Source of the DNA: a virus | Taxonomy: Duplodnaviria; Heunggongvirae; Uroviricota; Caudoviricetes | Strand: one strand, 5' to 3' | Length of the DNA: 27,426 bases | IMG/VR virus record: IMGVR_UViG_2660238683_000003 | Location: 1-27,426 of that record | Shown here: piece by piece, positions 23,249-27,313 of the stretch | Numbering within the stretch: the stretch's first letter is position 1 | How the letters are laid out: each line of letters begins with the position of its first letter | The notes under the pieces: generated by a model | Seen by the model: the letters and a program-made list of their open reading frames with translations, nothing else | Database searches by the model: none | Told to the model about the DNA's origin: nothing | Made by a program: the position numbers and the translations under genes

Positions 23249-23265
23249 AATGCTCTAATAAATTT
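23249..23265 (+). promoter_or_regulatory. C1-repressor operator-like site (Op51-like) upstream of c4-icd-ant
   Basis: AATGCTCTAATAAATTT matches the asymmetric P1 C1 operator consensus ATTGCTCTAATAAATTT (from memory) at 16 of 17 positions. Confidence 0.55.
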
Positions 23266-23449
23266 GTATTTTTAAGTCGCGAATGCTATCTTTTCGCATC
23301 ATATTGACCTTTTAATCGTTCAGGCTTATAGTTCCGCCGTCGTAGCAAATTCTGCGACCGGGTTTAGCAGCCTGAATGTTAGTGCGGACAACCGCAGATA
23401 TCCGATATTGCGGTATTTTTGTGTCCGTAAAACCGCGTTACGCCCAAAT

Positions 23450-23530
23450 TATGGTGGGGCGTGATGGGGAGGCTTCGGCCTGCTGGTTTCACTAACGCCA
23501 GTCTGCTAACCCCGTCACGTCCTGCCACCT
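23450..23530 (+). ncRNA. c4: c4-like antisense repressor RNA (approximate ends)
   Basis: Segments TCACTAAC (23489-23496) and CTGCTAAC (23503-23510) are complementary to GTTAGTGA (23562-23569, overlapping the icd SD) and TTAGCAG (23533-23539). The same target-like pair recurs upstream at 23363-23384. Confidence 0.45.
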
Positions 23531-23579
23531 GTTTAGCAGCGGGTAGCAGGTTGTTAAACCTGTTAGTGAGGCCGTAACT

Positions 23580-24918: not shown

Positions 24919-24935
24919 TTTGCTCTAATAAATTT
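24919..24935 (+). promoter_or_regulatory. C1-repressor operator-like site (Op53-like) upstream of kilA-repL
   Basis: TTTGCTCTAATAAATTT matches the C1 operator consensus at 16 of 17 positions. Second copy of the motif in the window, same orientation, about 70 bp before kilA. Confidence 0.55.
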
Positions 24936-26680: not shown

Positions 26681-26730
26681 TAGATTGCTCTAATCTGGAG
26701 TCACCTGGCGTTTTCAGTTTGAGGTCGGAG

Positions 26731-26976
26731 ATGCAATCTGATTTTTTACAGTTAGCGATCGCTTTTACAGGATATGTTTGCATTGGCTTCTGTGTATACA
26801 TGATCAGCCGAAAAATGCTTGTCGATATCGACCGCAAAGAACGAGCAGAGGAAATCTTAGTATGGATTTTCTTTGGCGCGGTCTGGCCATTAGGGATCAT
26901 GTTTGCTGCAACGTTTCTTCTGATGTGGATATTCACCATTCCAGGTGATTTATATAGAAAAAAAGCCAGACATTGA
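26731..26976 (+). CDS. Small membrane protein (about 81 aa, two predicted TM helices)
   Basis: Hydrophobic stretches LAIAFTGYVCIGFCVYMI and ILVWIFFGAVWPLGIMFAATFLLMWIF. ATG 26731 has GAGG upstream. The ORF-track start 26650 overlaps repL. Confidence 0.4.
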   Translation: MQSDFLQLAIAFTGYVCIGFCVYMISRKMLVDIDRKERAEEILVWIFFGAVWPLGIMFAATFLLMWIFTIPGDLYRKKARH

Positions 26977-27099
26977 TACAATCGCTGCGGGTGCTTGAGG
27001 CTATCTGCTTCAGGCATTACCCGAAAAGCAGACAGAAGAAAGCCCCAGATAACATTACGCGTCCTGCAAGACGCTTAACATTAATCTGAGGCCATATCT

Positions 27100-27306
27100 A
27101 TGCTTAGCATACGTAGATTAGCCTCTTACCGACCAAAAGGTCAAGGAGAAGCAGGCTATGAAGCAGCAAAAAGCGATGTTAATCGCTCTGATCGTCATCT
27201 GTTTAACCGTCATTGTGACGGTACTGGTAACGAGGAAAGACCTCTGCGAGGTACGAATCCGAACCGGCCAGACGGAGGTCACTGTCTTCACAGCCTACGA
27301 ATCTGA
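27100..27306 (+). CDS. mok: mok-like overlapping reading frame (modulator of killing)
   Basis: ORF that starts upstream of hok and overlaps almost all of it in another frame, as in hok/mok/sok loci. Confidence 0.35.
   Translation: MLSIRRLASYRPKGQGEAGYEAAKSDVNRSDRHLFNRHCDGTGNEERPLRGTNPNRPDGGHCLHSLRI
27110..27145 (-). promoter_or_regulatory. Candidate sok-like antisense promoter
   Basis: On the minus strand: -35 TTGACC (27144-27139), 18-bp spacer, -10 TAATCT (27120-27115). The transcript would run antisense across the mok start and hok leader. Confidence 0.3.
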
Positions 27307-27313
27307 AAGGTAA
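27158..27313 (+). CDS. hok: Hok/Gef-family type I toxin (51 aa)
   Basis: MKQQKAMLIALIVICLTVIVTVLVTRKDLCEVRIRTGQTEVTVFTAYESER is near-identical in pattern to E. coli HokD/RelF as recalled. AAGGAG SD upstream. Confidence 0.85.
   Translation: MKQQKAMLIALIVICLTVIVTVLVTRKDLCEVRIRTGQTEVTVFTAYESER

Follow-up and report, generated by a model that had tools for sequence, protein, structure and literature searches.

The window analysed here is the whole 27,426-nt stretch of viral DNA, and close to its right end it carries a gene for a 51-aa toxin of the Hok/Gef family, which is overlapped by a mok-like leader frame. The coordinates of all features of this locus are given in Table 1. The hok ORF matched Pfam PF01848 (Hok/Gef) with E=4.2e-22 and 77.9 bits (cut-off 22 bits) and phrog_251, 'MokW-like host killing', with E=7.7e-32; the NCBIfam Hok models matched as well, with scores under their curated cut-offs. 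The encoded protein is identical to HokD of Escherichia coli K-12 at 47 of 50 positions (94%) and to K-12 HokC at 40 of 50 (80%). An initial annotation, made from the sequence without database searches, had proposed a 51-aa Hok/Gef toxin close to HokD/RelF and a mok-like frame from 27100 overlapping it. Both proposals were confirmed, the latter by a phrog match and by records of Rac-type phages in which the corresponding frame is annotated as mok. At the DNA level, lambdoid, Rac-type and Stx phages have hok loci with 87-92% identity to that of the window.

Table 1. Positions of the elements of the hok locus and of the adjoining insertion sequence in the window
Feature	Position	Strand	Basis
Putative hok mRNA promoter (TAGAAA, 16-nt spacer, TACAAT, upstream TG)	26955-26982	+	Promoter scan, 9/12
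tac element GGGTGCTTGAGG, 5' end of hok mRNA	26989-27000	+	Conserved; pairs with fbi in uninterrupted relative
Partner of tac in local 5' hairpin	27007-27018	+	Predicted pairing at least 0.91 whenever fbi is absent
Predicted Sok-like antisense RNA, ~77 nt	~27108 to 27032	-	Ends transferred from annotated K-12 sokC
ucb / anti-SD box AAGCCCCAG, pairs with mok Shine-Dalgarno region	27040-27048	+	All predicted folds
mok Shine-Dalgarno GAGG, 8 nt before mok ATG	27088-27091	+	Sequence reading; sequestered by ucb in predicted folds
mok-like leader frame, 68 codons, overlaps hok	27100-27306	+	ORF list; phrog_37205 (E=8e-21)
Putative sok promoter: TTGACC (27144-27139), 18-nt spacer, TAATCT (27120-27115)	27115-27144	-	Sequence reading
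Candidate dcb box GCCUC, complementary to mok SD	27121-27125	+	Sequence inspection; role from R1 model (PMC9841398)
hok toxin gene, 51 aa	27158-27313	+	ORF list; GGAG Shine-Dalgarno at 27145-27148
Post-hok hairpin, IS-truncated: 5' arm, loop and first 3'-arm bases, GGCGGGGA-GAGA-TCC	27321-27335	+	
Left copy of 10-bp target duplication GGAGAGATCC	27326-27335	+	Right copy seen in pEC1515-2
Terminal 91 nt of IS186/IS421 (IS4 family)	27336-27426	-	100% identity to relative's IS end; window stops inside IS

The region upstream of hok was searched with Infernal against Rfam for Sok and hok mRNA elements, a check recommended in the initial annotation. RF01794 ('sok') matched 26989-27163 along model positions 1-157 of 157 with 111.5 bits and E=6.9e-25 (gathering score 59), which is far beyond chance. 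The match lies on the sense strand of the hok mRNA; the model covers the 5' UTR with tac, ucb and the mok start, not the Sok strand. Judged by the position at which the model begins, the mRNA would start at about 26989, and the putative plus-strand promoter found in the consensus scan is correctly placed for this start. Its -10 hexamer aligns with the TATAAT of K-12 hokC.

The window was aligned with K-12 hokC/sokC (sokC being an annotated ncRNA), with K-12 hokE and with one locus of a Rac-type phage. This alignment conserves the tac element, the AAGCCCC of the ucb box (kept in hokC and hokE), the mok Shine-Dalgarno, the box GCCTCTTAC at the candidate dcb position (kept in K-12 hokC) and GGTCAAGGAG, which comprises the sok -35 and the hok Shine-Dalgarno. 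The ucb box was paired with 27083-27092 in every predicted fold. The same logic and the same elements, namely tac/fbi, ucb, dcb, coupling through mok and a Sok with 5' tail and hairpin, are known from the R1 hok/sok (parB) system (PMC9841398), and by this analogy the local 5' hairpin of the window may correspond to the metastable hairpin of the nascent R1 hok mRNA (PMC9841398). RF01794 matches the window end to end, yet the divergence from R1 lies beyond the reach of blastn.

On the opposite strand, a Sok-like antisense RNA is predicted which would begin with a single-stranded 5' tail across the mok start, continue into a long terminator hairpin and end in a U-rich stretch. Its fold has -33.6 kcal/mol (z=-6.1). 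The hairpin GCGTC-ctgcaa-GACGC at 27059-27074, toward which a sok-like RNA had been supposed to run, is present and forms the tip of a longer 51-nt hairpin; the Sok hairpin is 18 nt longer in the window than in K-12 hokC/sokC. The antisense strand of this hairpin is about 10 kcal/mol more stable than the sense strand (-27.0 versus -17.2 kcal/mol), because G.U pairs on one strand are A.C mismatches on the other. Twelve hairpin variants were compared in this way, among them that of K-12 hokC and that of a lambdoid allele whose 30-nt hairpin sequence is wholly different. In 11 of them the antisense strand was more stable by 6-12 kcal/mol, and in K-12 hokE by only ~1.4 kcal/mol. Such a strand bias in predicted stability gives good support, in silico, to the idea of a functional antisense RNA, and the sok-like transcript of the initial annotation is upheld as a prediction by ends that align with sokC and by a hairpin favoured in the antisense direction. 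The promoter assigned to it was upheld in part: both hexamers and the spacer lie where they had been placed, but the description as near-consensus does not hold, since only 3 of the 6 bases of the -10 fit TATAAT and the site was not called in the consensus promoter scan of the window. The putative promoter was retained because its position is conserved with respect to the annotated K-12 sokC, homology being the only ground; its -35 is conserved in K-12 hokC.

The sequence following hok had been read as a typical hok 3' tail (...AAGGGTTGAACCATCTGAAGAATGCGACGCC), and the locus had been taken as complete. Neither reading can be kept. The supposed tail is the end of an IS186 element, with 100% identity to the initial 91 nt of the 1338-bp IS in plasmid pEC1515-2, which in turn is 99.7% identical to K-12 IS186A, and the 3' control part of the locus is missing from the window, split off by this element. 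The terminal inverted repeat CATAAGCGCTAACTTAAGGGTTG at 27336-27358 together with the internal sequence places the element in IS186/IS421. The window contains the IS end that is closer to the 3' terminus of the transposase gene, and this gene and hok are convergent. Among 5426 complete E. coli genomes, 2146 contain the final 97 nt of the window, at 8427 sites altogether (median 3 per genome). The tail probably looked typical since this IS186 end stands at the corresponding place of K-12 hokC/gef.

The insertion point lies 22 nt past the hok stop codon in a GC-rich hairpin, GGCGGGGA-GAGA-TCCCCGCC, and affects its loop and 3' arm. The target is GGCGGGGAGAGATCCCCGCC, the left duplication copy of which is in the window, while the right copy is seen only in relatives with the same junction. 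In one of these, pEC1515-2, the junction is followed by a complete 1338-bp element on the minus strand (PGAP: 'IS4-like element IS421 family transposase'), which lies between two copies of GGAGAGATCC; then CCGCCACTCTTCGTGTGGCAGGTATCCTCAATGCACCC...AAAAAAGCTCCCGAAGGAGCTTT, i.e. fbi and terminator, and bplB follow. Uninterrupted relatives have the full hairpin GG(C/T)GGGGAGAGATCCCCGCC and, after it, fbi and the terminator; in the uninterrupted P1-like phage MH422554, hok is directly followed by GGTGGGGAGAGATCCCCGCC...CCTCAATGCACCC...terminator. The window lacks the second hairpin arm, fbi and the terminator, which in the relatives with the same junction are found 1338 bp away. Judging from these relatives, the IS on the source replicon is presumably complete, with fbi beyond it.

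The consequence of the displacement was examined by RNA folding. In uninterrupted relatives, the fbi element is CCTCAATGCACCC and is the partner of the 5' tac GGGTGCTTGAGG: in the predicted fold of the uninterrupted mRNA (423 nt, -165.7 kcal/mol, z=-8.9), the first 12 nt, GGGUGCUUGAGG, are paired with CCUCAAUGCACCC near the 3' end. According to the partition function, tac (nt 1-12) pairs with fbi with a probability of 0.99 in the uninterrupted relative, and the same value was obtained for the window allele after removal of the IS in silico. For IS-fused transcripts of 347-700 nt, the probability that tac pairs with anything 3' of the hok ORF was 0-0.04, and that of pairing with nt 14-34, the local 5' hairpin, was at least 0.91. 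The IS186 sequence CTGAAG...GCGACGCC, which has a slight likeness to the R1 fbi, was considered as a substitute fbi and rejected at this pairing probability of 0-0.04. Folding of every construct lacking fbi, including a wild-type mRNA trimmed at the 3' end in silico, left ucb on the mok Shine-Dalgarno and gave no open tac/ucb form. Because the experimentally known open form of R1 was not reproduced, folding was not used to decide whether the IS-fused mRNA is open or closed.

Four of the elements that define the hok/mok/sok family were thus found at the locus: a small (~50 aa) hydrophobic Hok/Gef toxin, an overlapping upstream mok with its own Shine-Dalgarno, a cis-encoded antisense Sok over the mok start with 5' tail and terminator hairpin (in silico), and a 5' mRNA region with tac, ucb and the mok Shine-Dalgarno that fits the covariance model. 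A contiguous 3' fbi pairing with tac was found in the uninterrupted relatives and is lacking in the window. The window locus is therefore a member of the family by descent which is without one defining element.

Conservation was assessed for 83 hok loci, comprising the window, its IMG/VR relatives and three fetched records. The tac element is invariant in 82 of them, the contig of the 83rd being too short to show it. Changes in fbi are restricted to the predicted bulge (C, T or A) or are C-to-T changes compatible with G.U pairing. A double compensatory change in tac and fbi did not occur among the 83 loci, tac being invariant in 82. A distant blastn search for R1-type hok loci, intended for family-wide covariation, returned only loci of the hokD/hokW type and one of the hokC type. 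In the post-hok hairpin, one pair appears as a series of G-C, G.U and A-U among lambdoid alleles, and the hairpin is therefore a conserved RNA structure besides being an IS target. As a separate observation, K-12 hokE has a suggestive C-G pair where the window lineage has U and a bulge; the register is ambiguous.

An IS186 lesion after hok has textbook precedents in K-12, at hokC and hokE. The hokC (gef)/mokC/sokC locus belongs to the same family and has the same layout of tac, ucb, mok, sok and hok; it is chromosomal, whereas the window locus lies on a phage-plasmid, and the DNA of the two is ~75% identical. There, IS186A is inserted 22 nt past the stop codon in the same orientation as in the window and with a 10-bp duplication. 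The homologous target hairpin GGCGGGGAG(T/A)GATCCCCGCC is split by it into GGCGGGGAGTGATCC on one side and GGAGTGATCCCCGCC on the other, and the fbi element CTTCAACGCACCC lies beyond the far side of IS186A. Since the duplicated sequence is GGAGTGATCC at K-12 hokC and GGAGAGATCC in the window, the two insertions are independent. At hokE, IS186B is located 21 nt past the stop codon in the orientation opposite to that of the window. The closest named toxin, HokD (RelF) of the Qin prophage of K-12, comes from a locus with the reverse defect: its 3' part (hairpin, fbi and terminator) has its homologue in the uninterrupted relatives of the window locus, but its 5' part with tac, ucb, mok and sok is lost and relBE is found instead, whereas the window has kept the 5' part and lost the 3' part.

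The window belongs to a P1-like phage-plasmid (Punavirus), as C4 RNA, icd, ant, kilA and repL are present in P1 order. C4 and c4-a1b1 (the a1/b1 targets of C4 RNA) were matched with Rfam, and C1 operators are located at 23249 and 24919. A 96-kb P1-like plasmid of E. fergusonii is 99.7% identical to the window across 24.8 kb, up to 27336, and in a megablast search against phage records, P1-like phages were 98% identical as far as 27336, where every match stops. The gene order was compared with that of P1 (NC_005856). Canonical P1 carries rlfA-rlfB-pmgF between repL and bplB and no hok; in the window lineage, this segment is replaced by an 81-aa membrane ORF (phrog_3772) and the hok locus, with the breakpoint directly past the conserved left half of the P1 Op55 operator (26684-26694). 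The hok locus is situated in the variable repL-bplB segment directly beside repL, in agreement with the position next to the lytic replicon given initially, and the repL-bplB interval is an exchangeable cargo slot.

It was considered whether the hok locus might be chromosomal flanking DNA or an assembly chimera and lie outside the phage-plasmid. In favour of this, several IMG/VR contigs stop just past hok, and the window terminates in an IS of many copies, a place at which assemblies are prone to breaks and false joins. However, complete circular P1-like plasmids and phage genomes, both IS-bearing and IS-free, repeat the order repL, orf81, hok, bplB, and they share 98-99.7% identity with the hok flank of the window as far as 27335. 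Such an origin of the locus is extremely improbable.

P1 carries the phd/doc module, and a hok locus on a P1-like element had been expected to be either different from it or additional to it. The window itself contains no phd/doc according to blastn and tblastx searches of the window; in P1, phd/doc sits elsewhere. The 93-kb relative pLKSZ04, examined following the suggestion to look for phd/doc elsewhere on the replicon, has the identical hok-IS186 junction and carries phd/doc. Therefore, hok is an extra module and not a substitute.

The frequency of the interrupted allele was determined in PLSDB, counting records with at least 80% query coverage. The hok-IS186 junction was found in ~161 records (227-nt query spanning the junction), the uninterrupted tail in ~254 records (206-nt query spanning hok and tail) and the whole hok locus in 449 records. 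The IS is thus inserted in roughly 35-40% of the PLSDB plasmids with a P1-type hok. Among the junction matches listed (n=40), hok is annotated as an intact protein-coding gene in every case; 38 of them bear the name hokD, and the other two are labelled 'Hok/Gef family protein' and 'hypothetical protein'.

The sequence GGGGANNNATCC joined to an IS186 end occurs 21 times in IMG/VR, each time at a post-hok hairpin; a Hok ORF adjoins 18 of these sites, and the other 3 have the same hok-type flank. These junctions involve several hok paralogues, and both orientations of the IS occur within the P1-type allele. IMG/VR contigs contain 99 IS186 ends that could be classified; 51 of these adjoin the 3' hairpin of a hok gene, in at least 8 junction classes, and most of the 48 ends not classed as hok-flanking show GGGG, ~6 nt and then CC. 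Most uninterrupted P1-type alleles carry single C-to-T changes, by which the hairpin is kept through G.U pairing and the GGGG/CCCC run of the IS186 target is broken. The post-hok hairpin is a recurrent target of IS186. A further step would be to regard these insertions not as one-off events but as a recurrent, possibly selected disarming or rewiring of the hok modules of phages and phage-plasmids; this we hold to be doubtful.

By analogy with the known systems, the hok mRNA would extend from about 26989, hok would be translated via the overlapping mok frame, and the short Sok-like antisense RNA would bind the mok start region and thereby silence the mRNA. In the uninterrupted relatives, the predicted lock between the 5' tac and the 3' fbi would keep the full-length mRNA closed. 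As in R1, the closed mRNA may be inert and stable until it is activated by slow 3' trimming, which would act as the timer of post-segregational killing. In R1 itself, the tac/fbi fold-back makes the full-length hok mRNA untranslatable and prevents Sok binding until slow 3' trimming causes refolding (PMC9841398). Transcripts of the window allele would run into the IS, and the tac-fbi lock would not be formed. This allele keeps the toxin, mok and sok, and Sok would still be required to silence Hok. Since a pool of inert mRNA that depends on fbi cannot form in this situation, delayed post-segregational killing is most probably lost. Overall, we consider it very likely that a genuine hok/mok/sok locus is present, belonging to the phage-borne hokD/hokW subfamily, and that the insertion of IS186 has most probably cost it its delayed-activation control.

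Classical post-segregational killing was probably lost together with this control, as is held for hokC::IS186 and hokE::IS186 of K-12. PMC3562002 describes IS186 downstream of gef/hokC as thought to disrupt fbi and normal processing. The same source reports that gef/hokC with IS186 is still transcribed and regulated by antisense RNA, its mRNA ending ~200 bp into the IS. For hokA, hokC and hokE, inactivation by insertion elements is suggested in PMC12214031. As cited in bioRxiv 10.1101/2025.08.07.668861, IS-free chromosomal hokA and hokC likewise gave no post-segregational killing; the K-12 precedent therefore does not cleanly prove the IS to be the lesion responsible for inactivation.

In a different reading, the hok/sok addiction module is complete and functional and stabilises the phage-plasmid by post-segregational killing, the IS being irrelevant. 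In favour of this, the promoter, tac, ucb, mok, sok and hok have stayed intact, the allele is carried by ~161 plasmids and hence at least tolerated, and the annotation of hok as an intact gene in all 40 listed junction plasmids is compatible with a retained function or a recent insertion and argues against inactivation. Yet the IS has moved fbi and the terminator 1338 bp away, tac-fbi pairing drops from 0.99 to 0-0.04, and in the model for R1, whose hok/sok has an intact fbi and proven post-segregational killing, the delay of killing comes from a full-length mRNA that is kept inert by this pairing (PMC9841398). In K-12, moreover, such a lesion is regarded as inactivating (PMC12214031, PMC3562002). 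A fully working addiction module is, on this balance, very unlikely, and loss of the delayed activation is preferred.

The uninterrupted P1-type locus may, by analogy with characterised systems, either stabilise the plasmid or aid lysis; both are possible. The R1 hok/sok system stabilises plasmids and partly excludes T4, as cited in PMC8621323. The hokW-sokW locus of the Stx2 prophage Sp5 in E. coli O157 Sakai encodes a phage-borne 51-aa Hok of the same subfamily (phrog_251), and Stx-phage hok loci are ~88% identical in DNA to the window locus. It differs from the window in belonging to an integrated lambdoid prophage with an uninterrupted 3' tail, whereas the window locus lies on a phage-plasmid and has a tail split by the IS. 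HokW-SokW, in which HokW is 44% identical to R1 Hok, is an experimentally proven type I toxin-antitoxin pair; after induction, Sok vanishes, Hok reaches the membrane, lysis is hastened and phage release doubles (PMC8621323).

Accordingly, the main role of the window locus could be a phage function tied to induction, similar to that of hokW-sokW, or phage exclusion instead of plasmid addiction. This is suggested by the close relation of its DNA to the loci of lambdoid, Rac-type and Stx phages, by the assignment of the toxin to 'MokW-like host killing' and by the location directly downstream of the C1-controlled kilA-repL lytic unit, where the left half of Op55 is kept. Such a role might outlast the IS, because only depletion of Sok is needed and not 3' processing. 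On the other hand, a terminator-like site at 26933-26948 may block read-through from the lytic unit. As the main role of the locus, we regard a phage function as rather unlikely. Beside the preferred loss of delayed activation, a role triggered by depletion of Sok could survive the insertion.

The locus is of an already known kind, and hundreds of records name it hokD or MokW. Only mildly new are the scale and the recurrence of IS186 insertions at hok hairpins of phages and phage-plasmids. The locus matters mainly for correct annotation, as P1-like hok is labelled a type I toxin and the splitting of its 3' control element by IS186 goes unmentioned in many plasmids. If the IS-split alleles are inactive, censuses of the stability and defence modules of phage-plasmids would overcount working hok/sok systems. 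The recurrent IS186-hok junctions form a handy natural series in which the contribution of fbi could be tested in vivo. P1-like elements of the window lineage carry hok/sok on top of phd/doc, and if the C-to-T alleles resist insertion and the insertion usefully alters Hok expression, an arms race between the insertion sequence and the toxin module may be taking place.

The hairpin 3' of hok adjoins 51 of the 99 IS186 ends that could be classified in the IMG/VR viral contigs (loci L089-L166). These hok-flanking ends fall into at least eight junction classes, occur in both orientations and involve several hok paralogues. Most of the remaining IS186 ends in IMG/VR, not classed as hok-flanking, have GGGG at the junction and, some 6 nt further on, CC. 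The perfect GGGG...CCCC hairpin is kept in only three of the 16 uninterrupted P1-type alleles (L001 and L006-L020; hairpin sites after hok, at positions of about 1660-1685). Each of the other 13 carries one of five different single transitions, which retain G.U pairing and break the G or the C run, and the lambdoid alleles (L021-L084) show a G-C, G.U, A-U series at one hairpin pair. Such changes could be neutral or could lower IS186 targeting.

Upstream of the hairpin, the UACGAA context of the Hok Tyr47 codon is invariant in an alignment of the window, hokC, hokE and Rac-type alleles. The RF01794 ('sok antitoxin') match extends from the 5' UTR to the hok ATG on the sense strand of the hok mRNA; Sok is encoded on the opposite strand, and the antitoxin would be mis-annotated if the strand were copied from this match.

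Features of the window discussed in this part
Feature	Position	Strand	Basis or remark
Two cargo genes	about 7500-9190	+	placed by offset from 7604-9290 of L088, one of the sequences compared
Two C1 operators	23249-23265, 24919-24935		one mismatch each
a1/b1 targets and C4 antisense RNA	23326-23378, 23447-23532		Rfam, 55.5 and 70 bits
Left half of P1 C1 operator Orlf/Op55, ATTGCTCTAAT	26684-26694		conserved
81-aa ORF	26731-26976	+	phrog_3772, E=7.5e-52
RF01794 match	26989-27163		hok-mRNA sense strand
Hok Tyr47 codon, UACGAA context	27296-27301		

The P1 immunity elements listed are intact in the window; the P1 counterparts of its two C1 operators are Oc4/Op51 and OrepL/Op53. Where P1 has rlfA-rlfB-pmgF, the window has hok and, between repL and hok, an 81-aa ORF judged by eye to encode a hydrophobic product. 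Since the replacing segment starts immediately after the conserved left half of Orlf/Op55, this ORF may be C1-controlled.

Among the plasmid matches to the whole locus (H163-H178), certain P1-like plasmids retain only nt 1-135, i.e., the 5' UTR and sok region without hok, and others only nt 337-423, i.e., fbi and the terminator. These partial loci indicate further deletions or cargo insertions at the hok slot of P1-like plasmids. In plasmid pEC1515-2, IS3, IS30, IS26 and Tn3-family elements are located just upstream of hok. The window itself carries two cargo genes, with the holin region on one side of them and the gene for tail-fibre assembly on the other. The annotation of one is DapH/DapD/GlmU-related acetyltransferase and that of the other LPS N-acetylglucosaminyltransferase; both are possible lysogenic-conversion genes.
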